Below are positions 23,665 to 47,225 of a stretch of 64,000 nucleotides of DNA, in pieces. Origin of the DNA: a virus; the IMG/VR virus record IMGVR_UViG_3300025530_000002. The stretch is one strand, 5' to 3'. Under the pieces are notes generated by a model. The model saw only the letters and a program-made list of their open reading frames with translations. It searched no databases and was not told where the DNA came from. How positions within the stretch are numbered: the stretch's first letter is position 1; every line of letters begins with the position of its first letter. Made by a program: the position numbers and the translations under genes.

Positions 23665-23665
23665 T

Positions 23666-25777
23666 ATGAGCGAGCGCGAAAAGGCAGAAGAAACGTATCG
23701 CATCTACCGGTACGACCGGGAGAACGGCCACGAGCAGTACATACGGCGTGCCGAGGAGGCGCACCGGTACTACGCCTCGCAGCAGTGGTCGGAAGAGGAT
23801 GCGGCAAGGCGGCGGCAGGAAGAGCGGCCGATGGTGACGGTCAACGAGATCTTCGAGACCGTCAACGCCATCTCCGGCGAGCTGTCGCAGCTGTCGACCG
23901 ATGTGGCGTTCCAGGCCGACGTGGGCGGGGACCCCGCTACGGCGGACATCCTCAACAAGATGTCCGAGTATGTCGATCGACAGAACAAGCTGTACATCCA
24001 CGACGACCGGGTGCGCCGTGACGGCCTGCTGACCGGCCGCGGGTTCTACGAGATTCGGGTCGAGTTCGATGACAACCTGCAGGGCAACATCAGGATTCGT
24101 TCGCGCCGCCCGCAGAACGTGATCCTGCCTGCTGACCTCGAAGAGGCCGACCCCTCGACCTGGTCGCGCGTGTGCACGACCGACATCCTGAGCTTGCAGG
24201 ATGTGGAAGAGCTGTTCGGCGACTCGGTGGCCCGCGAACTGCGCGGGATGCCCTTGCCTGACTTCTACGACGCCGAGGACAAGAACCTGGCTTCGGTGCT
24301 CGGGTACAACTCGATGTACCGCGAGATGGGGCACTTCGACGAGGAAACGAATCCATTCATCCGCAAGTACCGCATGATCTCCATGCAGTACCAGGAGCTG
24401 AAGTGGAAGGACTTCTTCGTCGACGTGGACACCGGCGACATGGCCGAAATCCCGGAGAACTGGCCGCGCGAGAAGGTCGAGTACGCCATCCAGACGCTGG
24501 GGCTGGCCACCACGCGCAAGAAGGCCAAGACGGTCCGCTGGCGGGTGGTGCTCAACGACCTGGTCGTCCACGACGAGGACAGCCCCTACAAGTTCTACAC
24601 GATCGTGCCGTACTTCCCGTTCCTGTTGGACGGGGCGACGCTGTCGCTGTTTGACGTGCTCAAGGGGCCGCAGGACCTGCTGAACAAGTCCCTGTCCGAG
24701 GAGATCCACATTCTGACTTCCGTGGCCGCCAGCGGCTGGAAGGTCAAGGAAGGTTCGCTGCGCAACATGACGCCGCGCGAGCTGGAGACCCGCGGCGCCC
24801 GCAACGGCCTGGTGATGGTCCTGGAGGACATCGGCGACGCCGAGAAAATCCAGGGCAACAGCGCGCCGTCCGGCTTCCAGGACTTGTCGGCGCGCGCCCA
24901 GCAGTGGACCAAGCAGCTGGCCGGCCTGACCCCGTCAATGCAGGGCGCCCAGCGCGCGGATGCGTCCGGCAAGGGCATCCAGCTGCAGCTCAACCGTGCG
25001 CCGGTGAACCTGTCTACGGCCCTGACCGCGTTCCATTTCACCAAGCACCTGCTGGCCGAGCGCAAGCTGAACCTGTTCCAGACGTACTACACCGAGACCC
25101 GGTTCATGCGGGTCCAGCATGGTCGTTACGGGCACACCGAGGAGATCGGGATCAACATTCCGACCGTCGACGGGTACCTGCACGACATCACCTCGGGCAA
25201 CTACTACGTCGACACCGTGCCGGTGACCAGCCGGCTGCAGGCCGAGGAGTACGCGTTCGACGAGCTGGTCAGGCTCAAGGAGCTGGGCCTGCAGGTGCCG
25301 AACCGGCTGTTCATCGAGGCCAGCTCGATCAACGCCAAGCCCGACGCGGCGGCGGCCCTGCGCGAGGCCAACAGTGGCGAACTCAGCCCCGAGGAGCAGA
25401 TGGCCCGGCAGCTGGAGCTGCAGAAGATGCAGCTGGAGGTCGAGGCCGAGGCGGCCGACGTGGAGAACAAGCGCGCCCAGACCGTCCTGGCGCTGGGTCG
25501 CGCCCGTCGCGCTGCAGCCGACGCGCAGACTCCCGCCGCCCGGCTGGCTGTGGACGCCAATCGGCAGCGTCTGGAGGCCGAGCGCGACGCTCGCGCCGCC
25601 GACCTGGCGCGGCGCAAGCACGAGGCCGACGTGGCGCTGCAGCTCACTGAAATGGAGCACAGGATGGAACTGGAGCGGGAACGCATCCAGGCCAGCAAGG
25701 AAGCCGCACGCGCGGCGGCGAAAGCCGAGCCGCCGGCAGACAACACCCCCAGTAAGCAGCCACGCCAGAGGAAGTAA
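23666..25777 (+). CDS. portal protein
   Basis: Internal ATG 23666 lies 2 nt after the TerL stop. 703 aa. Long C-terminal coiled coil. Position is TerL-portal-scaffold-capsid. Confidence 0.88.
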   Translation: MSEREKAEETYRIYRYDRENGHEQYIRRAEEAHRYYASQQWSEEDAARRRQEERPMVTVNEIFETVNAISGELSQLSTDVAFQADVGGDPATADILNKMSEYVDRQNKLYIHDDRVRRDGLLTGRGFYEIRVEFDDNLQGNIRIRSRRPQNVILPADLEEADPSTWSRVCTTDILSLQDVEELFGDSVARELRGMPLPDFYDAEDKNLASVLGYNSMYREMGHFDEETNPFIRKYRMISMQYQELKWKDFFVDVDTGDMAEIPENWPREKVEYAIQTLGLATTRKKAKTVRWRVVLNDLVVHDEDSPYKFYTIVPYFPFLLDGATLSLFDVLKGPQDLLNKSLSEEIHILTSVAASGWKVKEGSLRNMTPRELETRGARNGLVMVLEDIGDAEKIQGNSAPSGFQDLSARAQQWTKQLAGLTPSMQGAQRADASGKGIQLQLNRAPVNLSTALTAFHFTKHLLAERKLNLFQTYYTETRFMRVQHGRYGHTEEIGINIPTVDGYLHDITSGNYYVDTVPVTSRLQAEEYAFDELVRLKELGLQVPNRLFIEASSINAKPDAAAALREANSGELSPEEQMARQLELQKMQLEVEAEAADVENKRAQTVLALGRARRAAADAQTPAARLAVDANRQRLEAERDARAADLARRKHEADVALQLTEMEHRMELERERIQASKEAARAAAKAEPPADNTPSKQPRQRK

Positions 25778-27101: not shown

Positions 27102-28229
27102 ATGGCAATGACTAACTTCGGCCGCCTCACTGAGGAGCAGGCCACTGTTTGGGCGCGCGACGTGTGGCGCGAGGCCCGCCAGACGTCCTTCTATCTGTCC
27201 AACTTCGCTGGCGACAGCAAGGACGCGATGCTGCATCGCATCACCGAGCTGCGCGCGGTGAAGGGTCAGGCGCGTGCTGTGATCACCCTCGTGCCGGATC
27301 TGGAAGGCGACGGCGTTGTCGGCGACAACCAGCTGGAGGGCAACGAGGAGGCCATCCGGGCGTTCGATCAGGTCATCGAGTTCGACCAGATCCGTCACGC
27401 CAACCGCCACGAGGGCGTCATGGCCGACATGCGCACGGTCGTGCGGTTCCGCGAGACCTCCCGCGACGTTCTGGCCTACTGGCTGGCGCAGCGCATCGAC
27501 GAGCAGATCGCCCTGGCGCTGTCGGGCGTCAGCTTCGCCTACCGCATCAACGGCGCCCCGCGTGTGGGTTCGCAGTGGACCCAGCTGGCCTATGCCGGCT
27601 ACATCACGCCGCCGTCGGCCAACAGGCACTTCCGCTGGGACAGCGCGAGCCACACCCTGGCGTCGGGCTCGACCTCCTCGGTCACGGCCAGCGACACCCC
27701 GTCCTGGGAGATGCTGGTCGAGATCAAGGCCAAGATGTCGGAGCTGGGCATCCGCCCGGTGCGCGCCGAAGGCGGCTACGAGATGTACAACGTGTTCATG
27801 CACTCTCGTGGCATCGCCAAGCTGAAGAAGGACCCGGACTTCCTGAACGCGTGGACCCACGCCCAGAAGCAGGGCGACGGCAACCCGCTGTTCCGTGGCA
27901 CCCGCAAGGGCGGTCGTCAGGGCTTCTTCATCGACGGCCTGAACATCATGGAGTACGAGAACGTCTTCAACACCACCGGTCTGGCCCCGGGCAGCAAGTG
28001 GGGTGCGGCCGGCGACGTTGAGGGCCAGCGCGTCCTGGTGTGCGGCGCCCAGGCCCTGGGCATCGCCGACATCGGCCTGCCGCGCTGGGTGGAGAAGGAG
28101 TTCGACTACGACGCCAGCCCGGGCATCGCCATCGCCAAGCTGTTCGGCCTGCTCAAGCCGGTTTGGCCGTCCAGCCGCACCGGTACGAAGGAAGACTTCG
28201 GCGTGGTCGTGGTCGATACCGCGATCTGA
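27102..28229 (+). CDS. major capsid protein (N4 gp56 / DUF4043-like)
   Basis: 375 aa. N-terminus NFGRLTEEQATVWARDVWREARQTSFYLSNFAGDSKDAMLHRITEL...LEGDGVVGDNQLEGNEEA matches my memory of the N4-type coat family. Confidence 0.88.
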   Translation: MAMTNFGRLTEEQATVWARDVWREARQTSFYLSNFAGDSKDAMLHRITELRAVKGQARAVITLVPDLEGDGVVGDNQLEGNEEAIRAFDQVIEFDQIRHANRHEGVMADMRTVVRFRETSRDVLAYWLAQRIDEQIALALSGVSFAYRINGAPRVGSQWTQLAYAGYITPPSANRHFRWDSASHTLASGSTSSVTASDTPSWEMLVEIKAKMSELGIRPVRAEGGYEMYNVFMHSRGIAKLKKDPDFLNAWTHAQKQGDGNPLFRGTRKGGRQGFFIDGLNIMEYENVFNTTGLAPGSKWGAAGDVEGQRVLVCGAQALGIADIGLPRWVEKEFDYDASPGIAIAKLFGLLKPVWPSSRTGTKEDFGVVVVDTAI

Positions 28230-30062: not shown

Positions 30063-31346
30063 ATGGCCATCCCAACCGACCGCGACCTGATACAGCTGGG
30101 ACCGTGGCCCCGCGGAGCAAACAACCTCGCGCCGGAAACCGGCGTGCCCCTCGGGTCGTTCCGGCGCGGTGTGAACGTCGATGTGAGCGACGGTGGCACG
30201 GTGAGTCGCCGCCAGGGGTACACGCGGGTCATCGCGGTGGACGAGCCTCATGATCTGTTCGGCTACGGCGACCGAGGCTTCTTCGTCTCCGGGAGCACCC
30301 TGTACGGGTTCGAGGTGGTGAACGGGCAGCTTACGGCGCCGATCCCGCTGTACGATCAGATCCGCCCCGATGCCCGCATCGCCCACTGTCTGGTCGATCC
30401 GGACATCTTCGTGTCGGACGGCGAGGTGACCTTGCGCATTTCGCCCAGCAACACGGTCGCCCCCTGGACGGTGGCCGCCGGCCCGATGCCTGTCCTGACG
30501 ACGGGCAACGCCGGCTCCCTGACGGCGGGGGTCTATCACGTGGCGGTGGCGCTGAAGGCGCCGACCGGCGAGGAGGGGCCGCTCGGCCCGCTGGCCAAGG
30601 CCGAGGTGCCCGACAACGGCAGCCTGACGGTCAACTTGCCGGCGCTGGCGCCTGGGATGCGTTACGCGGTCTACATGACCAAGCCCAACGGCACCGAGCT
30701 GCTGCACCTGGTCACGGCCCCGAGCGCCACGATCAACGTGTACAAACAGCACCAGGGCCGGCGTCCGCCGACCGAAGACACCGACCCCCTGCCGGCAGGG
30801 CACTTCGCCCTGCTGTGGAAGGGCCGACTGCTGGTGGCCAAGGACAACTACGTCTTCTGGTCCGAACCGATGCAGTACGGCCTGACCCGGCTGGCCTACA
30901 ACTACCTGGTGTTGGCCGAGCCGGTGACCATGTTGGCGGCAGTCGAGACGGCCGACGGGTTCTTCATCGGGCAGGGCTCGCGGACGTACCTGGCCCAGGG
31001 CGCCGACCCGGCCGACGCCACCTTGCGCGAGGTCTACCCGGCCGGCGTAGTGGCCGGTACGCTGCAGTATGTGCCTGGGGCACGCTTGCCGATGGAGGTC
31101 CCGCCGACCGAGCGGTGCCCGATGTGGACCTCCACGTCGGGGGTGTTCTGTGTCGGTCTGCCGGACGGCTCGGTGCTGCCCCTGACCGAGACCCGCTATG
31201 CGGCGGCCATCGCCAGCGAAGGCGCCGCGTTGTTCGTGCAAAACGCCGGCAAGAACCGGTATATTGCAACCCTGCGAGATCCGTCCGAAAATGGGTTCGT
31301 CCTGTCCGACTCGTTCTCGGCAGAGGTGATCCGAAACGGCAACTGA
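30063..31346 (+). CDS. virion structural protein
   Basis: 427-aa beta-rich ORF. Confidence 0.8.
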   Translation: MAIPTDRDLIQLGPWPRGANNLAPETGVPLGSFRRGVNVDVSDGGTVSRRQGYTRVIAVDEPHDLFGYGDRGFFVSGSTLYGFEVVNGQLTAPIPLYDQIRPDARIAHCLVDPDIFVSDGEVTLRISPSNTVAPWTVAAGPMPVLTTGNAGSLTAGVYHVAVALKAPTGEEGPLGPLAKAEVPDNGSLTVNLPALAPGMRYAVYMTKPNGTELLHLVTAPSATINVYKQHQGRRPPTEDTDPLPAGHFALLWKGRLLVAKDNYVFWSEPMQYGLTRLAYNYLVLAEPVTMLAAVETADGFFIGQGSRTYLAQGADPADATLREVYPAGVVAGTLQYVPGARLPMEVPPTERCPMWTSTSGVFCVGLPDGSVLPLTETRYAAAIASEGAALFVQNAGKNRYIATLRDPSENGFVLSDSFSAEVIRNGN

Positions 31347-34834: not shown

Positions 34835-35614
34835 ATGCTGCTCAAGCCGCCCGAGAGCATTTACCACCCCGGCACTCCGGGCACCGCCGGCACCCCGGAG
34901 CAGCCGGCGATCCCCGAGCGCACGGTGTGTGGCTACGTGGGCGGGGTGACCGAGACGGTGCGCATCTGCAGCACTGTGCGCCTGTGGGCGCCGGCCTCCG
35001 GCATCTGGAGTGTAGCGTTGCCGCCAGGCACAGAGTGGTACACGTACGGCGAGGAGAACGGCCGCGCTTACGTGGACTGCTACGTGTGCCGCACCGAGAC
35101 CCGATACACGGTGCCGCCCACGTACTCCTGCGTGACGTATCCGGCGGTGCCGTACAGGCCGGCCACTCCGCCGACGCCGCCGACGCCGCCCTGGGTCGAG
35201 AGCCGTCCGCGCTTCGGTTGGGACGCCGGTGCCAACAGCCGGCAGGAGCTGGATGGGGACGTGTTCGTGCGGTTCACGCAGCCGGTCGTCGTGGGGGTGG
35301 TGACCGGGTTCACCCACAACCCCGATGCGGTACCCGACCCGACCCGCATCTCGCACGGGTTCTACTTCTACACCGACGCCGAACGCGGGCAGTCGTACGT
35401 GCAGGTGTATGAAGCGGGTATCACCCGCGGCGGGCGGATGGTGCACTACCCGGAGGACGAGTTCCGCATCCAGCGGGTCAAAGGCGAAGTGTCGTATTGG
35501 TGTGGCGGCGAGCGCGTGTACACATCCGCGACCCCCAGCACGGGGCCGGTGCGGGTGGGTACCAGCCTGTTCGCCACGGGCGACCAGGTCCCGACTGCGA
35601 AGGTCAGAGTATGA
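34835..35614 (+). CDS. virion structural protein
   Basis: 259-aa ORF with a PTPPTPP linker. Confidence 0.75.
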   Translation: MLLKPPESIYHPGTPGTAGTPEQPAIPERTVCGYVGGVTETVRICSTVRLWAPASGIWSVALPPGTEWYTYGEENGRAYVDCYVCRTETRYTVPPTYSCVTYPAVPYRPATPPTPPTPPWVESRPRFGWDAGANSRQELDGDVFVRFTQPVVVGVVTGFTHNPDAVPDPTRISHGFYFYTDAERGQSYVQVYEAGITRGGRMVHYPEDEFRIQRVKGEVSYWCGGERVYTSATPSTGPVRVGTSLFATGDQVPTAKVRV

Positions 35615-37077
35615 GCATCGAGTTCGCCCCGCTCGACACAGCGCAGTACGACGGGTCGGCGTGGCTCACGTTCCGGCTGAAGGTCCAGGCCCTGTACGAT
35701 GTGCCGGCGGGCTCTGGCGTCTGTACGGTGCCCCTGACCCTGGGTCTGTTGGCGCAGGGTGATTCGCAGGGACAGGCGGAAGATCCGAACATCCCCGGCG
35801 CCGCCCTGGTGACGCTTTCGCTGGGGGTGCAGGCCCAGGGGCATACGGTGGCAGACGGCGCGGCCGACGTGACGCTGTCCGTGGGGACGTTCAGCACCGA
35901 CGGGGTCTTCGCCAACGTGCCGCTGCGGCTGGGCGTCAACGCCTGGGCGCCGCCTCCGGACGGGTACCCGTACTTCTTCTTGAGCGAGGCGCCGCCCTGG
36001 ATGTACGGCACGGGCGGGGCCTGGTACACCGACATGGAAGAAGGGCTGCGGCTGGGCGCCGACGTCGACACTGTGGTGGTCGCGCTGGTCCAGTCGATCT
36101 TGCAGCTGGAAGCGGCGCCGTTGCCGCTGATGATCTTCGCCGAGACGGTCCAGGACAACCTGGTCATGCGCGAGGCGGTGTCGTTGATCTTCGCCCGGGA
36201 GGTGCTGTCCGACATCACCCTGGCGTCCGACACCGAAACGCTGTTGACCCAGGTTGTGGCGGTGGTCGACCAGCTGTTGCTGCAGGACGAGTACCTGCCC
36301 GTGCAAAGTGCGCTGGTGACGGTGCTGGCGGCGCTGGCCCTGCGCGACACCGCCGTGCCGGTGCTGCAGCAGGAGGTCCAAGCCGCCCTGGCCCTGGACG
36401 AGGAGGTGACTCGCGCCCTGCTGGCGGCGGTCGAGGTCATCTCGGATCTGGCGCTGGCTGACGAGGCCCCGCACTCGGCGGTGATGTTCGCCCTGGCGGC
36501 GTCTGACATGGAGCTGCTGTCCCAGGTCGAGCGCAACCTGGTCGCGCTGGTCGAGCTGCTGGACAACCTGGAGCTGGGTGTTCGGCTGCGGGTCGGCAAA
36601 GAAGTTTACGCCGGCTACGTGGTCAATCTGGCGCGCGGGGCCGTGACCGAGTACGAGAACTACAACTTCAACTCGCTGGCCATGATCGGCGGCAAGCCGT
36701 TCGGTGCCGGCGAGGAAGGCGTGTACCTGCTGCAAGGCGACGATGATGACGGTGCGCCCATCGACGCCTATGTGCGCACCGGCGCCCTGAACTTCGGTTC
36801 GCTGACCAAGGTCCTGAATGGCTACATCGGCGTGAAAGCGGACGGCACGGTGCTGATGAAGGTCATCACCCGTGACGGCGGCGTGAAGAAGGAAAACTGG
36901 TACCGCATGAAACGGCGTCCGACTGGCGAAACTGTCGAGACCCGCTTCGACATCGCCAAGGGCCTGACCAGCACCTACTGGCAGTGGGAGCTGGCCAACG
37001 AGGACGGCGCATACTTTGAGCTAGACTTCGTCAAGGTCTGGCCGTTGCGCCTGACCCGTCGGTATTCCGGGAGGTAA
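35611..37077 (+). CDS. virion structural protein
   Basis: Internal ATG 35611 in an ATGA overlap. 488 aa. Confidence 0.8.
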   Translation: MSIEFAPLDTAQYDGSAWLTFRLKVQALYDVPAGSGVCTVPLTLGLLAQGDSQGQAEDPNIPGAALVTLSLGVQAQGHTVADGAADVTLSVGTFSTDGVFANVPLRLGVNAWAPPPDGYPYFFLSEAPPWMYGTGGAWYTDMEEGLRLGADVDTVVVALVQSILQLEAAPLPLMIFAETVQDNLVMREAVSLIFAREVLSDITLASDTETLLTQVVAVVDQLLLQDEYLPVQSALVTVLAALALRDTAVPVLQQEVQAALALDEEVTRALLAAVEVISDLALADEAPHSAVMFALAASDMELLSQVERNLVALVELLDNLELGVRLRVGKEVYAGYVVNLARGAVTEYENYNFNSLAMIGGKPFGAGEEGVYLLQGDDDDGAPIDAYVRTGALNFGSLTKVLNGYIGVKADGTVLMKVITRDGGVKKENWYRMKRRPTGETVETRFDIAKGLTSTYWQWELANEDGAYFELDFVKVWPLRLTRRYSGR

Positions 37078-37080
37078 TTC

Positions 37081-39027
37081 ATGGCTGTTCTTGCCCCAGG
37101 CGCGTACGTCACCCCGGCCTCGCCGCTGGTGGTCGAGCAGATGTCGCGGCTGAACAACCACGCCGACCACCTGCTGAACCGGACGGAAAACGTCGTCAAC
37201 AACATCCTGAACCTGCGGTTCAGCAACGTAGACCTGGACCCCCGGTTCCAGTTCTCGCAGGATGATCTCAACGCCCTGCTGAACCAGCTCGGCCCGCTTC
37301 CGGACGTGGAGATGGCCGACTGGACGGCCGGTCTGGACCTGTCGGCGGGCAACGAGAATTTCGTGTTCAACCCGCTGCTCCTGCAGCGCCTGCAGGAGCG
37401 CTTCGGCGACCTGCTGGAGCTGCCGCAGCCGCCGGAAGCCCCGCCGCAGCCGCCTGCGCCGCCCGACCCGGTCGACTTGCCGGACATCCTGCCGCCGCAG
37501 AAGCCGGTGCTGGAGAACTACCAGGCGCCGCAGATCGACACCAACATCCCGGTGCCGCAGTACGAGGACGCCACCGCCGAGGTGCCGTTCCCGACGCTGC
37601 GCCCGATCGAGCTGCCGCCGGTCCCCCAGATCAACCTGGATGACATCACGTTCCAGGGAGTTCCGCCTGTTTTCGAGGGAGTTCCCCCCGATATCGCGGA
37701 CTTCAGCTTCACTCCGGACACCTACACGGCGAAGTTCATCCCGCAGGTCGAGCAGGCGCTCAATCGCATGTTCGCCGGCGGCACGGGGCTGCCGCCCGAG
37801 GTCGAGGACGCGCTGTTTGAGCGCGCCCGCGAGCGCGAGGTCGAACTGGGCGAGCGCGAGGTCGACCAGATTCAGAACGAGTGGGCGGCGCGCGGGCACC
37901 GTTACCCGGCCGGGCCGATGCACCGTCGGGTGGACCTGGTGCGCAAGGAGGTCAGCTACAAGGTCAGCCAGCTCAACCGTGAACAGTTCATCGAGCACTG
38001 GCGAATCCATATCGAGCAGCTGCGTCAGGCCCTGACCACGGCCCTGGCCGCTGAGGACGTGCTGCTGCGCGTGTTCAGCCAGGCCGAGGAGCTGCGCTTC
38101 CAGGCGGCGCAGTTCCGCCTGCAGATGGCCATCCAGATTTTCAACGCGTTTGTCGCCAAGTACCAGGCGGATGCGTCGCTGTTCCAGGTCCAGGCCCAGG
38201 TGTACCGCGACCGTATCCAGGCCGAGATGGCCAAGCTGGAGGCGTTCAACGCCCAACTGCGCGGCCAGCAGCTGATCGGCGAGCTGAACATGCAGGACGT
38301 GCAGATCTTCGCCGAGCGGCTGCGCGCCCTGCAGGTCAACGTCGAGGTGTACAAGGCCCGGGTCGAGGCGTTTGCGGCCCAGCATGAGGCCCTGCGCACC
38401 CAGGTCAGCCTGTACCGGAGCCAGTTGGAGAACAATCTGCAGCTGGTCAACGTCTACGAGGCCGAAACCCGGGCCTTTGCCGAGATGGTCCGGGCCCAGA
38501 CCGCCAAGGAGGAGCGGTTCCAGACCAAGGCGGCCATCTACGGGCGGCAGATCGAGGCGTGGCGGACCCTGTACCAGGGGCTGATGGAGCAGTACAACGC
38601 CCAGCTGGAGCTGCAGCGCCTGAAGCGGGACATCTACGCGGCTGACTCCGAGCGCTTGGGCCAGTGGGCCAGCGCCGAGTCCGCGCGCATCCGGGCCCTG
38701 ACCGACAAGTACCAGGCCATTGCGACGGAGATCGGCGCACGTTCGGAGGCAGAACGCACCAAATACCAGCTGTATCTGGCGGTTGCCCAGGCCGCCCTGG
38801 AGCGGTATCGTGCGGCTGCGGACATCCTGTTGAAGAATGCCGAGGTCAACATCCAGTCCGGCCTGACGGCGCAGAGCCTGTACCTGCGGGCGCAGGAGAC
38901 TGGCGCGACCACCCTGGCCCAGCTGGCCGCCGGCATGACCAGCGCTGCGGGCATCCAGGCGTCGATCAGCGACAGCTCCGACTCCAGCATCAGCTACAAC
39001 TTCAGCGGCGAGCTTGACGTCGTATGA
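37081..39027 (+). CDS. internal virion / ejection protein candidate (long coiled coil)
   Basis: 648 aa. Pro-rich linker followed by about 350 aa of Q/A/E/R-rich helix. Confidence 0.8.
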   Translation: MAVLAPGAYVTPASPLVVEQMSRLNNHADHLLNRTENVVNNILNLRFSNVDLDPRFQFSQDDLNALLNQLGPLPDVEMADWTAGLDLSAGNENFVFNPLLLQRLQERFGDLLELPQPPEAPPQPPAPPDPVDLPDILPPQKPVLENYQAPQIDTNIPVPQYEDATAEVPFPTLRPIELPPVPQINLDDITFQGVPPVFEGVPPDIADFSFTPDTYTAKFIPQVEQALNRMFAGGTGLPPEVEDALFERAREREVELGEREVDQIQNEWAARGHRYPAGPMHRRVDLVRKEVSYKVSQLNREQFIEHWRIHIEQLRQALTTALAAEDVLLRVFSQAEELRFQAAQFRLQMAIQIFNAFVAKYQADASLFQVQAQVYRDRIQAEMAKLEAFNAQLRGQQLIGELNMQDVQIFAERLRALQVNVEVYKARVEAFAAQHEALRTQVSLYRSQLENNLQLVNVYEAETRAFAEMVRAQTAKEERFQTKAAIYGRQIEAWRTLYQGLMEQYNAQLELQRLKRDIYAADSERLGQWASAESARIRALTDKYQAIATEIGARSEAERTKYQLYLAVAQAALERYRAAADILLKNAEVNIQSGLTAQSLYLRAQETGATTLAQLAAGMTSAAGIQASISDSSDSSISYNFSGELDVV

Positions 39028-39170
39028 CCCGCCCAAACGACCGCGTCGTCTATACTCCGCTGCGCCTGCAGAACCAGGCGCGGCAGCAGAGCCGGCAGGC
39101 CCAGCTGGAGGCCCGCCGCCTGGCCCATTCCGTCCGCCCGGAGAAGAAACATGGCCGTCGACTTCCGTAG
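39024..39170 (+). CDS. small basic protein (48 aa)
   Basis: Hand-translated as MTRPNDRVVYTPLRLQNQARQQSRQAQLEARRLAHSVRPEKKHGRRLP. ATGA overlap. High third-position GC. Confidence 0.4.
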   Translation: MTRPNDRVVYTPLRLQNQARQQSRQAQLEARRLAHSVRPEKKHGRRLP

Positions 39171-39423
39171 TGCGTTCGCGGGGCGTCCGTCTTTGCGGAG
39201 GGCGCTGCAGGCTTTGGATGACTCTGGACAAGCGGCGTTCGCCGCGTCTGTGGCGGACGTGGACCCGCTCCGGTTCAAGAGCCTGTACCGCGACCGGGCG
39301 CGCCAGTTCTTGGACAGGCGGCGCGCGCTGAACCGTACGCTATTCCGAGACCAGCTGGAGCAGCAGCGGCAGCTGGAGCGCGAGGACTACCTGCGCCGTA
39401 ACTTCAATATCATGGGCGGATGA
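39151..39423 (+). CDS. hypothetical virion-module protein
   Basis: 90-aa ORF. Confidence 0.7.
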   Translation: MAVDFRSAFAGRPSLRRALQALDDSGQAAFAASVADVDPLRFKSLYRDRARQFLDRRRALNRTLFRDQLEQQRQLEREDYLRRNFNIMGG

Positions 39424-39436
39424 GATAGGGGCACGT

Positions 39437-40660
39437 ATGGCGACCGATCCGTTCAACGACAACGAGACCAAAGGCCGGCTCCGGCGCCCGGTGGACGCCA
39501 CTGCGGCGCCGCAGGGCTTCTATCCCATGACGCCGGGCGCCTTCAACACGCCCCCGCAGGCCGCGCCGACGGTGCAGCTGCGCAGCCAGCGGGATGCGGA
39601 GGCGTCGCGCCCGCAGCTCCGGCGTCCAGAGGTGCGCCTGGTCGAACCGACGCCGCCGAACTTCGAGAACGCGGGGGAGCGGCGGCGGGCCGGGGTGACC
39701 CGCATCGTACGTACTGCTCCGGGCGTGTACACGGACGACCCGTACGCCGAGGGCGAAGTCCGCTACTACGGCGCTTTGGGCGATCGCGTGGACGTGCCCC
39801 AGATGCCGTCCGGAGTGACGACCAACACCACCCCGGAGCAGTTCTACCAGGCCCAGCGCGCCTCGGCGTTCGACGTGACGACCCCCGAAGGGGCGTGGCG
39901 CGCGGCTGGCAACGCCGAACGTCAACGCCGGACTCTGGGGCGTATGCTGGCCGACCAGGCGGCTATCGCGGCCGGCCAGGACCCGAGCAACCCGCGCGGG
40001 CTTGAGTGGGTGCCGGACCCGACCAACCCGGACCGCTACACGGTCTTGTCGCGGGAGCAGCGCGAGGCGGCCGACCCTGCCTTGGCGGCCGCCCGGGCGA
40101 GGGGCCAGAGCGGTCCGGACCTGGGCGACCTGATCGCGTTTTTGCGCCTGCAGATGGACGCACAGAACAACGCGGCCAACCAGCAGCTGCGCGAGCGCGC
40201 GCTTCAGCGAATGGAGGCTGAGAGCCTGTCGCGGCGGTTCCGCGACAACCCCTCGGCGTTCGTGCGCGAGGAGCTGGGTGCGCTGCGCACGGCCGCGCCG
40301 GAAGAGCGTGCCGCGTATTTCTCGTCCCCGCGTGGGCAGTTCGTCCGTTCGCTGATCGACGACCAGGCCCGACGCGCCTACACCCGCAACGCACGCGGCG
40401 TGGCCGGCCTTTTCGCCACGCCGCCCGAGTCGGTCGCCGAGCTGCGGCGCGCCAGCCGTCTGGAACGAGCGCTCCCGTTGATGTCCCCGGCCATCGGCCT
40501 GCTGGGCGGTGCTACGCCGCTGGACTTCTTCCGGTCGCGGTACGTGACCGCCCGAGACCCGCTGCAGCGTGGCGTCTCGCTGGAGGACATGGGCCTGACT
40601 CCGGGCGATGCGTGGGTGCTGGACCTCCTGGCGGACCTGGATATCAACAGCGGACGGTGA
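39437..40660 (+). CDS. internal virion protein candidate
   Basis: 407-aa ORF with a disordered N-terminal half. Confidence 0.8.
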   Translation: MATDPFNDNETKGRLRRPVDATAAPQGFYPMTPGAFNTPPQAAPTVQLRSQRDAEASRPQLRRPEVRLVEPTPPNFENAGERRRAGVTRIVRTAPGVYTDDPYAEGEVRYYGALGDRVDVPQMPSGVTTNTTPEQFYQAQRASAFDVTTPEGAWRAAGNAERQRRTLGRMLADQAAIAAGQDPSNPRGLEWVPDPTNPDRYTVLSREQREAADPALAAARARGQSGPDLGDLIAFLRLQMDAQNNAANQQLRERALQRMEAESLSRRFRDNPSAFVREELGALRTAAPEERAAYFSSPRGQFVRSLIDDQARRAYTRNARGVAGLFATPPESVAELRRASRLERALPLMSPAIGLLGGATPLDFFRSRYVTARDPLQRGVSLEDMGLTPGDAWVLDLLADLDINSGR

Positions 40661-40664
40661 ATCG

Positions 40665-43600
40665 ATGGCCCTTCGGCGCTACGAGCCTGATTACTTGGGT
40701 ATCGCAGACCGGTATCTGCAGCGCGGCCAGCCGGAAGACGAGCTTACCGCACCCCGTCCGACCCGGCAGCCCGTCGAAGAACCGGCTGGTTTGCGCAAGG
40801 TGACGCCGGCAGAGCGCGCGGAGTGGCGCTTCCGGCGCGCCAACCGCCGCACTGGCGACACTGAGAAGGCGTTCGACCAGGGCGCGGCCAACGTCGGCGC
40901 CAGCGTCATCGCCACACGCGGTCTGGTGCGGAACCTTGTGTCGCCCGGCTCGGGTGACGAGGATCTGATTCGTTCGGTCCGCATAAACGAAAGAGCCGCC
41001 GAGTACGGCCCGCGTGTCCAGCAAATCGAGGACATCGAAAACCCGCTCGACGCGCTGGAGTACGCCCGCAACGTCGCGGTCCAGCAGGTGCCCAACGTGG
41101 CCACCATCATTGCTGGCGGCGGTATCGGCGGCGGTCTGGCGCGCGGTGCGACGGCCGTGGCGGCGCGCCAGGCGGCCAGCCGCGTCGCCCAGCGCGCTGC
41201 TGCGCGTCTAGGCGAGGAGGTCGTTTCGCGCCAGACCCGGAAGCGCGCCGCCGACGTGGCCGCCCGCGCGCTGGCCGGCCGCCGGCGTTACAACGCCGTG
41301 GCCGAAGGTGTGGGGCAGGCAGCGGCCGGTGCGGTCCTGCAGTCCGGACAGATGGCCGAGGCAGCCCTGGACGACACCCAGATCCAGGACCCGCGCCAGC
41401 GTGCGGCCATGGCGCTGACCGGCGCGGCCGTCACCGGCGCCATCGACGCGCTGCCGGTCAGCCGCCTGATGAAGCGCCTAGGCCTGTCGAGCGCCGATGA
41501 TGCGGCCAAGTTCGTGGCGCAAGGCCCGCTTGTCCAGCGCGTCACCAAGCAGGCGGCGCGGCAGGGTCTGGAAGAGGCCACCACTGAGGTCGTGCAGACC
41601 GTGGGCGAGCTGGCCACGCACAAGTGGATCAACAACAACGTCGAGCTGCTGGACGACGACGCGCTGAGCCAGTACGCCAACGCGTTCGTCGGCGGCTTCG
41701 TCGGCGGCGCCGCCTTCGGTGCGCCAGCCGGCCTGCGCGGCAGCACGTCGGATGACCGGCTGTTCGCCCGCGTGCGTGATGGACTGCGCGAGGGCTTCAA
41801 CAGCCTGCGCGAGAAGCTGCCGGGGCTGTTTGGCCAGGTTGGCGAGCCTGTGGAAGATATACAGGCGCCTCCGAATCGCGGCTCCGGTACGCGCGCCGAG
41901 GCGGAGCCCCCGCGCGGCTCCGGCACGCGAGCCGGGACGGAGACCCCGCGTGCCGAGACGGCGGCCCCGCGCGGCGAGGCGGAGACCCCGCGCGGCGAGG
42001 CGGAGACCTCGCGCGTGCGCGACACGTTCGACCGGTTCCTGAACGCCGAGCGCGCGTCGATGGAGTTCGACGAGCTGCTGGCGTCCTTGGAGGAAAAGCC
42101 CTACGACTTCCAGGAGATCGGCAACGAGGCGGTTCTGGCCGGTGCGCCGGCTGGCAAGTTCGTCAACCCGGCGCGCCTGGCGGAAGTGCGCACGAACTTC
42201 GGCCTGACCAAGTCGCAGGCGCTGATGGCCGCTGCCCTGCCGACCGAGCCGGCGATCCAGCGCATGGCTTCCGACGGCACTCTGGACGTGGCGTACCGGG
42301 CTTTCACGGGCGCGGACGTGAAGCGCTTCACGCCGGAGCAGAAGCGCCAGCTGGTCGATTACGTCAACGCGCTGCCGAAGGAACAGGCCACGATGTTCAA
42401 GCGCACCCTGGCCTTCGTCGAGGCCTTGGCGCGCCGGGGGCTGCTGGAGCGCGATGCGGACGGCAACCTGTCCGAGGCGTACATCTACGACCCGGCGACG
42501 GCCGGGCAGTTCGCGGAGGCCAGCGCAGCGGCGCAGGCCGACCCGAGCGAGCTGCAGCAGCTGGGCGAGACGGAGATCTCGCCTCAATCCGATCCGAGGA
42601 CGATCGCCCGTACGGTGCTGCGCGCAGCGCGCGGCACCAAGATCACGCAGGGGATGCCGCCGCGTGACCTGGTGATGACCGACGGGCAGGAGCGCCGTGT
42701 GCTGCAGTTCGGCGCGGCCCTGCGCGCGGCGCGCGAGGCTGATCCGGACGCCGCTCAATCAGTCGATGCCATCCAGGACGCGAACGAGAAGCTCCGCGCT
42801 CAGGTGGCCCTGGTCGACAGCTACTTGCGCGAGCAGGGGTGGCGCATCGACCTGGCTTCGGTGCGCCCTTCCGTGCGGTTCGGCGAGGGCTGGGGACTGA
42901 CCCCCGCCCTGGCCCGGCAGCTGCGCACGGACTTGGGCGAGGAGCAGGGGCGCCCGCGCTGGGAGCAGACTCCGCTGGCGCGCGCGGCGCGCGGCGAGGA
43001 AGCGATCTCGCCGGCCGAGCTGGAGCTGGCCCGGGAGCGTATCGAGCGCGAGCGCCCGCGTGCGATCGACGACGACTACGGTCAGGCCGACCGCATGGAG
43101 ATCGAACAGCTGACCGGCGATGCGGACGGCATCGAGCCCCCGCCGCGCGTGGCCCTGCCTGGCACCGGTCCGCAGTCGGGTACCTACACCATGCGCCGGG
43201 AGCCGCGTACGCCGCCGGCCGGGCCGTCTTTCACCGAGCTGTGGGAGCGTGAGCTGCGTCGCAGCGGCTTGCGCGAAGAGGACGGGCGGATCGTGCGCCG
43301 CAACGGCCGTCCGATCACGCCGGAGATGGAGGCGACGATTCGGCGCAAGGTCGAGCGCCAGCTGACCCAGCAGGGCGTGGAGCGCCTGCCGCCGAACCCG
43401 CAGGCCCAGCCGTTCGACAATGCGCGTGTCCGGGAGGCCGAGCGCCGAGGTATGCGCGACGCCTCGCTGGACACCCGAGGCGAGGATGCGGGCTTCGCGG
43501 ATAGGGCGGCGCTCGATGAAGAGCGCAAGGTCGAGCGTATCCAGACGAGCATTCTGGAGGGGCAAGAGCGCCGCCGCAACGAAGCTGCAGCCGAGCGCAA

Positions 43601-46600
43601 AGAGCGGCTGGCCGCGCGCAAATTCAAAGCGACGCCGGCCAAGCGCAAAGCGCAACCGACCGAGCGCGAAGCGCAGCTGAGCGATCGTGATGTTTCGCAG
43701 CGCGAGTTCCTCGAAAGCATCCGCAGCATGCTCCACAGCAGGGAAGAGATCGAGCGCTTCGAGGCGCGCCTGCAGCGCGTGCGCTCGCCCGCCACGCTGG
43801 TGGCGCTGCGCGACGCAATTATGGCCAATCGGGACGCGCCGTTCGCTGACACTGCGCTCGCGGCCGTCGTGGAGCGCTCGATCGCGTTGCGTGAGGCCAC
43901 TCTTGCGGCGTCTGCGCGCTCCGCGGAGGCCATCAGGGCCGGGAAAAGCCGCTTCACGATGGTCAACAGCAATGAGTACATCCGTCGGGTCGAAGCGCTG
44001 CGCAACGGCTTGAAGCAACTGGCGTCGCAGACGGACGTATACGACTTGCAGGACGTGCTCAAGATCATCGCGCGCATCACTACGTCTGAACGGCAGCGTG
44101 CGGTGGTCGACGCGCTGCTGCAGTCGCGCGCCGCCCGCGGCGTCAAAATCCGCTTCACGTACAGCTCCAAAGCGCCCAACGGCGCGTACCACCTCGGTAG
44201 CGACACGATCGAACTGGACCTCACCGACCCGCAGCCCCTGCGCATCAGCGGGCGCTCTGCGTGGTATGACGCGCTGTCAGCCATCCTGCATGAGGCGGTG
44301 CACGCGGCGACGTACAAGGGGGAGATGGCCCGCCCGCTGATGCGCAAGGAGCTGAACGACCTGCTGCTCCACGTGCGCACGGAGCTGGCGAAGCAGGGCG
44401 TGGACGTGGACTCCTGGTACGGCCTGTCCGACACCCAGGAGTTCCTGGCGGAAGCGTTCACCAACCCGCACCTGCAGGCCCTGCTGGAGTCGGTCCCGGC
44501 GGCTAACACCAACACGTTCCGCAACGCTTGGGAGCAGTTCAAGAACTGGCTTGCCCGTCTGCTGGGCTTGGCGACGGACAAGCGCGCGCAGACTGCGCTG
44601 GACGAAGTGCTCACCTTCGGACGGGTGCTCATGCAGGAAACCGCGCAGGCGCGCTTGGACACCCAGACGGACATCTACGCCGGCGCCGGGCCCAGCGTGC
44701 TCAACAGCGCCACCCTCCCAGAGGAGCCGACCGACTGGGTGGTGACCCTCAAGCCGGAGGACAAGGCTCGGCTGCTGGCGGCGTTCGAAGCCCCGAAGAT
44801 CCGCAACCAGATCGCCAGGGCGCTGCCGAAGGACATGCGCCACCTGGTGTACTCGGCCGACGCTGGCCCGTACATCCTGATCAACACCGGCGTGGCCATG
44901 TACCTGGACGGCAAGCTGGACCTGAGCAGCAAGGACCGCGGCGCGGTGCGGCGGCTGTGGGACACCATCAGCGAGGCGCTGCGCATCCCCAACGCGAACG
45001 TCTACGCCAAACAGATCCTGGCAGACATCAAATCGGGCTACCTGCAGCAGCGAGGGAAGTACTACGATGCCCGCAAGCGCGTCCTGATCCGCAACCCGGA
45101 GGACCGGATCGGCCGGATGGCGTACCGGGCGCACCGCTGGATGCAGCGTCATGTGCAGCCGGTCTACGAAGGGCTGCTGAAGAACATGCACAGCCGCCTG
45201 CGCGCCGAGGGCATCCCGGCCATGCGCGAACTGGCCACGCTGATCTCCGAACGTACGGGTGAGTTCCGCGCCGACGACCAGCAGAGCTATCGACGCCGCT
45301 GGAACCGACAGGAGACCCGGCTCCTTAACCGGCTCGCCCCCATCCTGAGCGATCTGACGCCGCGCGAGGAGCGCATCCTGGTGCGCGCGCTGCAGCGCGG
45401 CAAGCTGCCGGCGAAGTACGCCAACGACAAGCGCTACAAGGCCAAGTACAACGCCATCCGCAAGTACCTCGACGACATGTACGATTACATGACGGAGGCC
45501 GGCGTGGAGCTTGGCCGGGTGGACAACTTCTTCCCGGTCGTCATGGACGCGGACAAGGTGCAGCGCCAGCGCGATCTGTTCTTCGAGCTGCACCGGGCGC
45601 CGAACCTGGAGCGCCCGATCCGGCAGCGCTTCGCCAAGTACGCCACCGAGTACGTGCGCCGGCTGGAGGCCAAGCCGAAGCTGTCCAAGGCCGAGCGTGA
45701 CAAGCTCGACGCCATGACCCGGTACATGAACGACGTGCTCGACCCTGAGAAGGTCCCGATCGACGAGCTGATCGAAGACCTGTACCAGATGGCTATCTTT
45801 GGTGGCCGTGAGCACTACGTTGCCGGCGTCAACTTCGCCGACTCGGCCCACGTGCCGTCGTTCAGCTCGATCCAGCCGCGGACCAGCTCGTTCATCTTCA
45901 CCCACGGTACGCCTGAGCAGCGCCGGCTGTTCGCCAAGTTCCAGAAGACCAACCTGACCGGCATCCTGGTCAAGTACACCCGCCGGGCCGTGCGTCGGGC
46001 GGAGTGGGAGCGCATGGGACTGACCGACCAGATCCAGAACCTGTTCGAGCAAGCCCGTGTGCAGGGTGCGGATGACCGCCAGCTCCAGATGATGCAGGAC
46101 TACCTGAACATGGAGATGGGGGTCTACAACGACGACTGGAACCCGGTCATCAAGCGCATCCTGACCGGTATCGACACCGTCTTCGGCTCGAAGCTGGCCC
46201 AGACCGACTTCCAGAAATGGAAGGGCGCCCAGGCGGCGCTGATGACCTACAACAACCTGCGCCTGCTGCCGCTGGCGGTGGCTTCGGCGTTCGTCGATCC
46301 GCTGGCGGTGATGGTGCGTGCCGGTGGCGTGCGCGACGCGTTCGGCGCGTACCGCGACGCCCTGCGTGCGTTGCGCAACGTGGGCGGCAACGACGAGCTG
46401 CGTAAATTCGCCGAGCTGTACGGCTACATCGAGCGCGAGGGCATGGGCGACGTCCTGGCCCCGCTGTACGGCGGCACCTACGACCCGGACTCGCGTCTGG
46501 GCAAGATCAACTCGGCCTTGTTCCGGTACAACGGCCTGGAGGCGATGACCCGGTTTACCCGTCTGGCGGCGCTGGCCGCCGGCCACCGGTTCCTGATCCG

Positions 46601-47225
46601 CCACGCGTTCAACCCGGATGCGAACAGCGCTCGGTACCTGCGCGAGCTGGGCCTGACCGCCGAGGACATCCGGCTGACCAAGAACGGCAAGTTCGTGGTC
46701 CAGACGCCGAAGGTCCAGGCGGCCCTGCGGCGGTTCGTGGATGAAGCCACGGTGCGTCCGGAGCCGGGCGACCGGCCGAGCTGGCACAACGACCCGAACT
46801 TCAACCTGGCCAGCCAGTACAAAGGCTACCTGTACGCCTTCTACGAGAAGGTCATGGTCCGGGCGCTGCACGAGCTGCGGTTCGGCAACCCGGCCGTGCT
46901 CGTGCCGCTGATGATGTACCTGCCGGTCACCATGATGGGCGAGATCGCGCGCGACCTGCTGCAGGGCGACGCCGACGACAAGGACCCGGAGGACTACCTG
47001 TGGCTGGCGGTGGACCGCTCTGGTCTGCTGGGGCCGCGCGCCGGTACGATCAACGACACCGCGACCAACTTCAAGTACGGCGACGGCGTCCTCGGCACCC
47101 TGGCAGGCCCCACTGGACGTCAGCTCGCGGACGCGTACGATACCCTGACGGGCGACGAGGAGCTGTCCGACCTGCTGCTTGAGGCGCTGCCCGGGCAGGC
47201 GCTGTACAAGAAGTGGGGAGACTGA
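40665..47225 (+). CDS. giant (2186-aa) virion/ejection protein with an HExxH motif
   Basis: Internal ATG 40665 lies 4 nt after the upstream stop. Gly-rich hydrophobic segments VATIIAGGGIGGGLARGA and AFVGGFVGGAAFGAPAGL. PRGSGTRA/PRGEAET repeats. HEAVH at 44289-44303. Confidence 0.9.
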   Translation: MALRRYEPDYLGIADRYLQRGQPEDELTAPRPTRQPVEEPAGLRKVTPAERAEWRFRRANRRTGDTEKAFDQGAANVGASVIATRGLVRNLVSPGSGDEDLIRSVRINERAAEYGPRVQQIEDIENPLDALEYARNVAVQQVPNVATIIAGGGIGGGLARGATAVAARQAASRVAQRAAARLGEEVVSRQTRKRAADVAARALAGRRRYNAVAEGVGQAAAGAVLQSGQMAEAALDDTQIQDPRQRAAMALTGAAVTGAIDALPVSRLMKRLGLSSADDAAKFVAQGPLVQRVTKQAARQGLEEATTEVVQTVGELATHKWINNNVELLDDDALSQYANAFVGGFVGGAAFGAPAGLRGSTSDDRLFARVRDGLREGFNSLREKLPGLFGQVGEPVEDIQAPPNRGSGTRAEAEPPRGSGTRAGTETPRAETAAPRGEAETPRGEAETSRVRDTFDRFLNAERASMEFDELLASLEEKPYDFQEIGNEAVLAGAPAGKFVNPARLAEVRTNFGLTKSQALMAAALPTEPAIQRMASDGTLDVAYRAFTGADVKRFTPEQKRQLVDYVNALPKEQATMFKRTLAFVEALARRGLLERDADGNLSEAYIYDPATAGQFAEASAAAQADPSELQQLGETEISPQSDPRTIARTVLRAARGTKITQGMPPRDLVMTDGQERRVLQFGAALRAAREADPDAAQSVDAIQDANEKLRAQVALVDSYLREQGWRIDLASVRPSVRFGEGWGLTPALARQLRTDLGEEQGRPRWEQTPLARAARGEEAISPAELELARERIERERPRAIDDDYGQADRMEIEQLTGDADGIEPPPRVALPGTGPQSGTYTMRREPRTPPAGPSFTELWERELRRSGLREEDGRIVRRNGRPITPEMEATIRRKVERQLTQQGVERLPPNPQAQPFDNARVREAERRGMRDASLDTRGEDAGFADRAALDEERKVERIQTSILEGQERRRNEAAAERKERLAARKFKATPAKRKAQPTEREAQLSDRDVSQREFLESIRSMLHSREEIERFEARLQRVRSPATLVALRDAIMANRDAPFADTALAAVVERSIALREATLAASARSAEAIRAGKSRFTMVNSNEYIRRVEALRNGLKQLASQTDVYDLQDVLKIIARITTSERQRAVVDALLQSRAARGVKIRFTYSSKAPNGAYHLGSDTIELDLTDPQPLRISGRSAWYDALSAILHEAVHAATYKGEMARPLMRKELNDLLLHVRTELAKQGVDVDSWYGLSDTQEFLAEAFTNPHLQALLESVPAANTNTFRNAWEQFKNWLARLLGLATDKRAQTALDEVLTFGRVLMQETAQARLDTQTDIYAGAGPSVLNSATLPEEPTDWVVTLKPEDKARLLAAFEAPKIRNQIARALPKDMRHLVYSADAGPYILINTGVAMYLDGKLDLSSKDRGAVRRLWDTISEALRIPNANVYAKQILADIKSGYLQQRGKYYDARKRVLIRNPEDRIGRMAYRAHRWMQRHVQPVYEGLLKNMHSRLRAEGIPAMRELATLISERTGEFRADDQQSYRRRWNRQETRLLNRLAPILSDLTPREERILVRALQRGKLPAKYANDKRYKAKYNAIRKYLDDMYDYMTEAGVELGRVDNFFPVVMDADKVQRQRDLFFELHRAPNLERPIRQRFAKYATEYVRRLEAKPKLSKAERDKLDAMTRYMNDVLDPEKVPIDELIEDLYQMAIFGGREHYVAGVNFADSAHVPSFSSIQPRTSSFIFTHGTPEQRRLFAKFQKTNLTGILVKYTRRAVRRAEWERMGLTDQIQNLFEQARVQGADDRQLQMMQDYLNMEMGVYNDDWNPVIKRILTGIDTVFGSKLAQTDFQKWKGAQAALMTYNNLRLLPLAVASAFVDPLAVMVRAGGVRDAFGAYRDALRALRNVGGNDELRKFAELYGYIEREGMGDVLAPLYGGTYDPDSRLGKINSALFRYNGLEAMTRFTRLAALAAGHRFLIRHAFNPDANSARYLRELGLTAEDIRLTKNGKFVVQTPKVQAALRRFVDEATVRPEPGDRPSWHNDPNFNLASQYKGYLYAFYEKVMVRALHELRFGNPAVLVPLMMYLPVTMMGEIARDLLQGDADDKDPEDYLWLAVDRSGLLGPRAGTINDTATNFKYGDGVLGTLAGPTGRQLADAYDTLTGDEELSDLLLEALPGQALYKKWGD

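Follow-up and report, generated by a model that had tools for sequence, protein, structure and literature searches.

We describe a giant gene in IMG/VR virus record IMGVR_UViG_3300025530_000002, a 64,000-nt stretch of DNA that we refer to as the window and in which positions count from the first letter. The gene (40665..47225 including the stop codon, plus strand) translates without stops, as originally predicted, into a 2186-amino-acid (aa) putative virion/ejection protein, which in our view is likely to be the largest internal-core or ejection protein of a KPP25-like (Kochitakasuvirus-related) podovirus and the counterpart of T7 gp16 and of a polymerase-less N4 gp50. The C-terminal ~450 aa of the giant are homologous, by profile comparison, to the C-terminus of T7 gp16, and since the C-terminal (CT) module and the preceding C1 domain also match internal core proteins structurally, its primary role is probably that of a gp16-class ejectosome subunit. 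It is a member of the KPP25-type family of virion structural proteins (PHROG 30152), and its sequence points to a gp16-class ejectosome protein with a polyvalent-type architecture and an apparently active zincin.

Homology of the C-terminal module to T7 gp16

The CT module (residues 1341-2186; 44685..47222, plus strand) is all-alpha and is the most conserved part of the protein, as seen in alignments, hidden Markov models (HMMs), a structural model and Foldseek searches. The original prediction had set aside the roughly 950 residues that follow the HExxH centre as lacking a nameable motif and had found the usual roles of giant podoviral proteins not to be evident; neither statement holds, as the region is a recognisable gp16-type module whose last ~450 aa are homologous to T7 gp16 and which matches an internal-core fold. 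When an alignment of 76 family CT sequences was compared by hhalign with one of 20 gp16-family sequences including T7, the two matched at 97.1% (E 6.4e-11) over 406 collinear columns, placing residues ~1732-2181 of the giant (45858..47207, plus strand) on residues ~764-1300 of T7 gp16, its C-terminal ~540 aa; an earlier comparison with thinner alignments had reached 64.5%. The same relationship is recovered from an AlphaFold2 (AF2) model of residues 1091-2186, for which the T7 core protein 9jyy_I is the top Foldseek match in the PDB (E 1.5e-3, prob 0.99, 823 columns). In BFVD the model matches the KPP25 structural protein (6e-25) and, with E from 1e-13 to 1e-6 along 800-1300 columns, proteins of phiKMV-, T7-, Prado- and VP2-like phages that are annotated as internal core protein or 'internal virion protein D'; its best neighbours in that database bear the name 'Large polyvalent protein associated domain-containing'.

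In the T7 internal core gp16 is assembled as a ring of four subunits, and on ejection it gets as far as the cytoplasm (PMC11784390). The giant shares with the gp16 class, which includes PhiM1 gp48 (PDB 8VB2), the phiKMV-like internal core proteins and the gp16-like protein of Xanthomonas phage f30-Xaj, its gene place as the last and largest of the internal run, the homologous C-terminal ~450 aa, the fold match over 800-1300 columns and the absence of Cys, and many members of the class place a C1 zincin just upstream of the helical C-terminal region. It differs from T7 gp16 in being ~900 aa longer and in lacking the N-terminal lytic transglycosylase (Pfam, E <= 0.1), in place of which it carries a glycine-zipper N-terminal domain (NTD), a clade-specific MID domain and a long Arg/Glu spacer. 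The transglycosylase is not universal in the class, although PF01464 was found in gp16-like relatives of f30-Xaj, and the T7 domain is dispensable under standard conditions. T7 gp16 itself, unlike the giant, has no canonical C1; a HERLH at its residue 559 (SDIHERLHGTDQ) is not matched by the C1 HMM. These sequence comparisons suggest that members of the gp16 class have variously acquired C1, lost it or retained it in degraded form.

The C1 domain and its HExxH centre

The C1 domain (residues 1131-1340; 44055..44684, plus strand) was delimited by profile searches, HMMs and the AF2 model as a lethal-factor-like zincin module of the type known as the metallopeptidase (MPTase) of polyvalent proteins and as C1 of the N4 gp50 C-terminal domain (CTD-C1). 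It holds the HEAVH centre to which the original prediction had drawn attention (residues 1209-1213; 44289..44303, plus strand), the sole HExxH of the giant where 0.012 would be expected from composition. Across 196 distinct C1 domains H1209 is conserved in 100%, E1210 in 99% and H1213 in 99%, and from this conservation and the model helix we propose the two His as zinc ligands and E1210 as general base. Downstream, the segment YGLSDTQEFLAEAF (44418..44459, plus strand) carries Y1252 and E1259, each conserved in 99%, and E1263 in 92%; conservation, spacing and the model helix suggest that it supplies a catalytic Tyr and a third zinc ligand. In the AF2 model HEAVH lies on helix 1203-1222, with a predicted local distance difference test score (pLDDT) of ~85, just C-terminal to three strands (model residues 71-77, 82-86 and 91-97; pLDDT 80-90), and E1259 lies on the downstream helix 1257-1266. 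Conservation together with this predicted secondary structure suggests E1259 as the third metal ligand, and, as far as sequence and predicted secondary structure show, the motif does not sit in a non-catalytic context without one, a finding that would have counted against the first reading of it.

The arrangement recalls that of anthrax lethal factor (LF), in which the zinc ligands are His686, His690 and Glu735, with Glu687 as general base and an indispensable Tyr728 (PMC5668564, PMC3496994). The Tyr and Glu are offset from the second His by +38/+45 in LF and by +39/+46 in C1, and LF is both the HHpred match published for the N4 domain (PMC5512222) and, weakly (E 0.45, prob 0.21), among the Foldseek matches of our model. 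LF (PDB 1J7N) is likewise a protease that passes a narrow pore in the unfolded state, yet the likeness is limited to the catalytic core: C1 is without the LF substrate-docking domains and its activity is only predicted.

PHROGs and tblastn searches first tied residues ~1127-1333 to an N4-like virion RNA polymerase (vRNAP) as well as to 'internal virion proteins with endolysin domain'. C1 matches the Vibrio phage PG11 vRNAP by profile (95.3%, E 2e-8) and by HMM (E 3.5e-12), a 12-sequence Schitoviridae C1 alignment by hhalign (94.8%, E 5e-8) and the C1 of the gp16-like family at 98.4% (E 5e-15). HE[LMV]xHA is present in 10 of the 12 Schitoviridae sequences; two distant vRNAP-like giants of 3131 and 3975 aa have no HExxH at that position. 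Among PDB sequences the C1 profile finds three solved ejection proteins, 23sg gp10, the 9sfn 'internal virion protein' and the PhiM1 tetrameric ejection protein gp48 of 8vb2, all of which contain HE(A/L)xHA(A/K)T. Pfam applied to C1 alone returned no match. These relationships and the modelled fold place HEAVH in a genuine zincin-type module and not in a chance motif.

We predict from the sequence that C1 is, on balance, a catalytically active protease, for which self- or ejectosome processing and the cleavage of host proteins are about equally likely purposes. The alternative, that the HExxH domain binds metal or nothing, stabilises the protein or nucleates its refolding, and leaves the giant purely structural in the core and DNA conduit, appears unlikely to us. 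It is in keeping with two N4 vRNAP cryo-EM papers that treat C1 as a structural subdomain touching the polymerase and report no protease activity, with the packaging of N4 vRNAP in unprocessed form (PMC5512222), and with the ability of T7 gp16 to function without a canonical C1. A purely structural domain would nevertheless make it hard to explain why the general-base Glu and the LF-type catalytic Tyr are each kept at 99% across 196 divergent domains, and C1 also behaves as a mobile module that has entered many giant proteins otherwise unrelated to one another. When 1.84 billion cluster representatives were searched exhaustively with HMMER, it was found in 3,597 proteins at E <= 1e-3 and in 975 at E <= 1e-10, almost all of them 1,200-5,650 aa long and nearly all giant phage proteins.

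The same HEAVH pentapeptide occurs, as was originally pointed out, in a small 140-aa protein of the early region (3112-3534, minus strand), which contains LLVHEAVHVWQ, belongs to PHROG 882 and has no Pfam match. Its resemblance to the C1 profile covers 27 columns around the motif at a probability of 39%, a generic zincin motif match that gives no evidence of a specific link to the giant, and judging by these columns we probably have here a small zincin-like protein in its own right and not a relative of C1.

Family layout and the polyvalent-protein connection

The giant has 22 full-length homologues of 97-20% identity with a common layout, in which an NTD of ~380 aa and a short low-complexity linker are followed by MID (~290 aa), a spacer of 330-980 aa, C1 (~210 aa) and CT (~840 aa). 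In IMG/VR 205 relatives are found, which lie mostly on 60-70 kb contigs. A global MAFFT alignment of 68 giants proved too noisy, to the point that C1 compared with C1 lost significance, and domain HMMs and L-INS-i alignments of the individual domains were used in its place. Searched against the giant open reading frames (ORFs) of 79 relative loci, with Z set to 1e6, these HMMs match CTb in 78 loci, CTa in 52, NTD in 26, C1 in nine, MID in three and the variable spacer (VAR) in one. CT always occupies the extreme C-terminus. The ends of the protein are therefore conserved and its centre is variable. Distant homologues retain the second His of the zincin motif, in the form HExGH.

The cultured relatives are the Pseudomonas phages KPP25, phiR18 and CRPAP1904 (Kochitakasuvirus). 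Their homologue, annotated as a virion structural protein of ~2,000-2,100 aa in KPP25 and phiR18 (PHROG 30152), shares the NTD (1.8e-10) and CT (CTa 5e-36, CTb 4e-103), an HExxH immediately before CT, the complete absence of Cys and the gene position. Identity to the giant is ~32% and confined to the C-terminal third, MID and VAR are not shared, and the HExxH of the KPP25 type (HESMH) has diverged too far to be recognised by the C1 HMM.

Among 19 other family giants scanned with Pfam, one member each carries ART-PolyVal, phage lysozyme, cpYpsA/SLOG or NADAR, all within the variable centre. This exchange of central domains is shared with the polyvalent proteins of Iyer, Burroughs, Anand, de Souza and Aravind (2017, PMC5512222), whose MPTase is our C1 by homology to their N4 seed domain; the N4 domain, gp50 aa 2130-2448, was described there as a zincin-like metallopeptidase independently fused into other giant proteins. 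The C1-bearing proteins that we tested contain LPD39, LPD3, ddrB-ParB, ART-PolyVal, NADAR or RadC-JAB, five of which (LPD39, LPD3, ART-PolyVal, ddrB-ParB and RadC-JAB) are a further point in common with polyvalent proteins; one of 3536 aa joins ART-PolyVal to NADAR and so combines an ADP-ribosyltransferase with a domain that may be its partner in processing ADP-ribose. Polyvalent proteins carry two or more unrelated effector or enzymatic domains, whereas the giant has one that can be recognised, the zincin, and no Pfam LPD model matches it. The original interpretation is partly supported: it was right on the zincin and on the polyvalent context, which the swapping of the family's centre also fits, and it missed the kinship with gp16.

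It might be argued from this kinship, in line with the original prediction, that the giant is chiefly a host-directed polyvalent effector, made to deliver the zincin, and perhaps MID, to cleave host defence or housekeeping proteins, with the conserved ends as no more than a packaging and delivery vehicle. C1 does belong to the MPTase network of polyvalent proteins, relatives place ART-PolyVal, lysozyme, NADAR and cpYpsA/SLOG at the same central position, the closest structurally characterised zincin is anthrax LF, a translocated protease of host proteins, and C1 is optional in gp16-class proteins, as cargo would be. We nonetheless regard such a purpose as a minority possibility, one that should be kept in mind and not favoured. 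No C1 domain has a known substrate or activity, this member offers a single recognisable enzymatic domain, and in N4 C1 packs on the polymerase within the autoinhibitory CTD, a role that is not that of an effector (PMC13434306). CT is homologous to a protein that forms the core and conduit, hence the giant is more than a vehicle, and it is this gp16-type CT that ties it to the ejectosome and sets it apart from a free effector.

Comparison with N4 gp50 and the question of a polymerase

With gp50 of N4 (Schitoviridae) the giant has in common its size, its lack of Cys, its predicted ejection, a Gly/Ala-rich NTD followed by a low-complexity linker, a homologous HExxH C1 followed by a large all-alpha C-terminal region, and a 'beads on a string' organisation (PMC13434306). 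In the 2026 cryo-EM paper on N4, CTD-C1 comprises residues 2124-2375, packs against the polymerase as part of the autoinhibitory CTD, and has its HExxH noted without an assigned function (PMC13434306). C1 alone is demonstrably shared between the two proteins. The notion of an N4 gp50 scaffold minus its polymerase was considered and rejected, the two NTDs matching at E 0.028 (prob 1.8%) and CT matching C2 at E >= 0.078, or E 0.18 with broader alignments.

Unlike gp50, the giant has no RNA polymerase domain. Giant virion proteins of crAss-like phages reportedly proved to be polymerases, and a very divergent enzyme hidden in MID, VAR and CT, after the manner of N4 gp50 or crAss-like gp66, would agree with the weak PHROGs match to the N4 vRNAP family (2.5e-5) and with the window's lack of any other candidate phage RNA polymerase gene among its large ORFs. 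That PHROG match is wholly accounted for by C1. The six domains match the N4-like RNAP profile at E of at least 0.097 (probability <1%), the RNAP HMM scores -0.8 bits and no DxDxD motif is present in the giant; in addition MID is small (~290 aa), VAR is of low complexity and CT is gp16-like. We have therefore rejected a cryptic virion-packaged RNA polymerase, which of all the explanations weighed here is the one we find hardest to credit. Pfam and the RNAP profile and HMM likewise bear out the earlier statement that the giant has no lysozyme, transglycosylase or RNA-polymerase signature. The largest non-structural proteins of the window are a primase-like protein of 813 aa, a DNA polymerase of 657 aa and a helicase of 456 aa, and the phage presumably relies on the host polymerase.

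Cysteine absence and the proposed ejection-protein run

The giant and the two proteins encoded upstream of it, of 648 and 407 aa, contain no Cys at all. The remaining nine large proteins encoded in the window each contain 1-8 Cys, 0.7% overall, from which ~23 would be expected in the trio and the probability of none is ~1e-10. The same absence is seen in 59 of 74 family giants, in the phiR18 giant and its upstream 822-aa protein (gp86), in 15 gp16-like family sequences, f30-Xaj gp16 among them, in f30-Xaj gp14-16 and in T7 gp15/gp16; the N4 gp50-52 group belongs here too, gp51 and gp52 being fully free of Cys and N4-like vRNAPs having 0-1 in ~3,500 aa. We infer that Cys avoidance is a hallmark of proteins whose passage through the oxidising periplasm takes place in the unfolded state. 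On this reading, the absence of Cys marks 37081-47225 as an ejection-protein run, in agreement with its original description as a run of internal proteins.

The 648-aa protein (37081..39027, plus strand) is a candidate partner ejection or core protein on the basis of its synteny with the giant gene in 28 family loci, where the conserved order is g526, g648, a variable gene and the giant, and it has weak matches to PDB 26la_X (318 aa) and to phiR18 gp84. The 407-aa protein (39437..40660, plus strand) has no database match and is a candidate partner by its position only. Further upstream, a 526-aa protein (35497-37077) matches PDB 26gp_Q, a 'Structural protein' of 620 aa (E 2e-18), as well as entries 26la and 44nx, and phiR18 gp82. 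Because chain lengths and aligned residues coincide with those of phiR18 gp82 and gp84, a virion structure of a KPP25-like phage is probably already in the PDB.

Among the PDB entries that match virion proteins of the window, no chain matches the giant, which fits a disordered internal component and bears on whether the protein is ejected at all. Homologues are annotated merely as 'virion structural protein' and in KPP25 the gene adjoins tail-fibre-like genes, as might be expected of an external fibre, tail needle or decoration protein. An external location is made very improbable by the homology that links the giant with gp16 and with internal ejection proteins of solved structure, by the absence of Cys, and by long disordered linkers in a protein that has no beta-helix, fibre or collagen-like repeats.

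The N-terminal half

The N-terminal domain (residues 1-400; 40665..41864, plus strand) is helical and Ala/Gly-rich in a low-confidence AF2 model, is kept in part of the family, with HMM matches in 26 family loci and phiR18, and is a candidate membrane-binding module. It contains the two Gly-rich segments that had been noted before. The first, PNVATIIAGGGIGGGLARGATAVAA (residues 143-167; 41091..41165, plus strand), has an invariant P143 and the Gly-rich core VATIIAGGGIGGGLARGA (residues 145-162); the second, glycine zipper 2, is NAFVGGFVGGAAFGAPAGL (residues 339-357; 41679..41735, plus strand), with the core AFVGGFVGGAAFGAPAGL (residues 340-357). Both were defined by alignments and composition. 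A GxxxGxxxG pattern is by itself common (0.73 expected by composition); G344 and G348 are invariant in two independent alignments, and G352 is invariant in one and present in >=90% in the other. The NTD of N4 gp50, which inserts into nanodiscs (PMC13434306), has segments of like Gly/Ala-rich composition and a hydropathy of 0.9-1.5, and it is by analogy with this domain, without homology, that the segments of the giant are candidates for membrane insertion. Foldseek found nothing below E 0.5 in the PDB for the N-terminal half, and the NTD profile retrieved three fragments only from a 5.8-billion-protein set, a search in which Ala/Gly-rich words probably swamped the prefilter.

A low-complexity linker follows (41877..42015, plus strand), with pLDDT <50 and a length that differs among homologues. 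Its PRGSGTRA and PRGEAET sequences arise from tandem repeats of a 36-nt period (2.1 copies, 41877-41950) and of a 21-nt period (4.3 copies at 85%, 41926-42015); the repeats described originally are therefore real, with the 21-nt unit present in 4.3 copies and not in two. The MID domain (residues 470-760; 42072..42944, plus strand) is clade-specific by alignments and HMMs and is modelled as two alpha/beta subdomains with pLDDT 80-89; it has no Pfam or PDB match. Between MID and C1 lies VAR (residues 761-1130; 42945..44054, plus strand), which alignments, composition and the AF2 model describe as a variable, Arg/Glu-rich helical spacer. Homologues differ three-fold in the length of this spacer (330-980 aa), for which a role in setting distances is conceivable, and its only match, of low complexity, is to the long helical domain with which TolA spans the periplasm (PDB 9kpz, E 0.014).

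Gene and genome setting

The window is by gene content a segment of a phage genome, has a GC content of 65%, and also encodes a primase, a DNA polymerase and a helicase. The ATG of the giant gene at 40665 lies 4 nt past the upstream stop codon (40658-40660) and is preceded by GGACGG; an alternative ATG at 40608 falls within the upstream gene. GC at third codon positions is 0.88, as is usual for genes of the window. In the gene map the giant gene closes the internal-protein run and is the largest in it, downstream of those for the portal (23564-25777), the major capsid protein (27102-28229) and a head-closure protein (30063-31346), at the end of a structural module of conserved synteny. Minus-strand early genes flank this plus-strand block on both sides. 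Megablast of 20 kb of the window against GenBank phages gave no nucleotide match, and a Pfam scan at E <= 0.1 gave none for the giant or six of its neighbours.

Proposed model and implications

We propose the following course of events for a gp16-class giant of this kind. The CT module would anchor a few copies of the protein in the core above the portal. When the phage infects, the giant would be threaded through the tail and unfolded domain by domain; the string between the beads would be the repeat linker together with the Arg/Glu spacer. The glycine-zipper NTD may then engage the inner membrane, while the CT module, with the Cys-free proteins encoded upstream, would form the cytoplasm-proximal end of the DNA conduit. 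Finally, the zincin would refold, bind zinc and cut a protein on the cytoplasmic side, a location suggested because the N4 polymerase and its CTD must be cytoplasmic.

Several observations weigh against this interpretation and have to be set beside it. The virion location of the giant is predicted by analogy, from the annotations of its homologues. For residues 1091-2186 the quality of the AF2 model is moderate (pLDDT 72.5), and its TM-scores with gp16-class proteins lie at 0.2-0.5. Neither domain HMMs nor a profile of the giant's family match the T7 gp16 sequence taken singly, the match being confined to family-against-family profiles. The upstream proteins show no detectable similarity to thin gp14/gp15 alignments. 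The Gly-rich segments, originally called hydrophobic and likened to those of membrane-inserting ejection proteins, are only weakly hydrophobic, at Kyte-Doolittle values of 1.16-1.18 that fall below the usual transmembrane threshold, and they are modelled at pLDDT <50. As to the zincin, several gp16-class proteins are without any HExxH, which is therefore not required for ejection as such; published work on N4 vRNAP and polyvalent proteins reports no zinc binding or cleavage for any C1 homologue, and the N4 vRNAP is, as mentioned, reportedly packaged unprocessed.

An HExxH domain in ejected phage proteins was predicted in 2017 and has since been seen in the 2026 N4 vRNAP structure and in the sequences of three solved ejection proteins, never with an assigned activity. 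The giant's family offers this C1 without a polymerase or lysozyme and with its catalytic set almost perfectly conserved. The P. aeruginosa relatives KPP25, phiR18 and CRPAP1904 can be cultivated and share the end modules; their HExxH is divergent and may not report on C1. In its boldest form, which we offer as a speculation with the odds against it, the C1 zincin would be an active protease injected with the DNA by thousands of podoviruses, interchangeable among gp16-type proteins, N4-type virion polymerases and KPP25-type giants, that acts on the cytoplasmic side, either dismantling and resealing the ejectosome after DNA entry or cutting host defence proteins. If this were true, the giant would represent a minimal form made up of membrane anchor, protease and gp16 conduit, and the N4 polymerase could derive from an RNAP inserted into a C1-bearing ejection protein. 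The absence of Cys may serve as a cheap marker for ejection proteins in unannotated phage genomes, and the sequence link between CT and T7 gp16 extends the gp16 class to abundant uncultivated podoviruses of ~60-70 kb.

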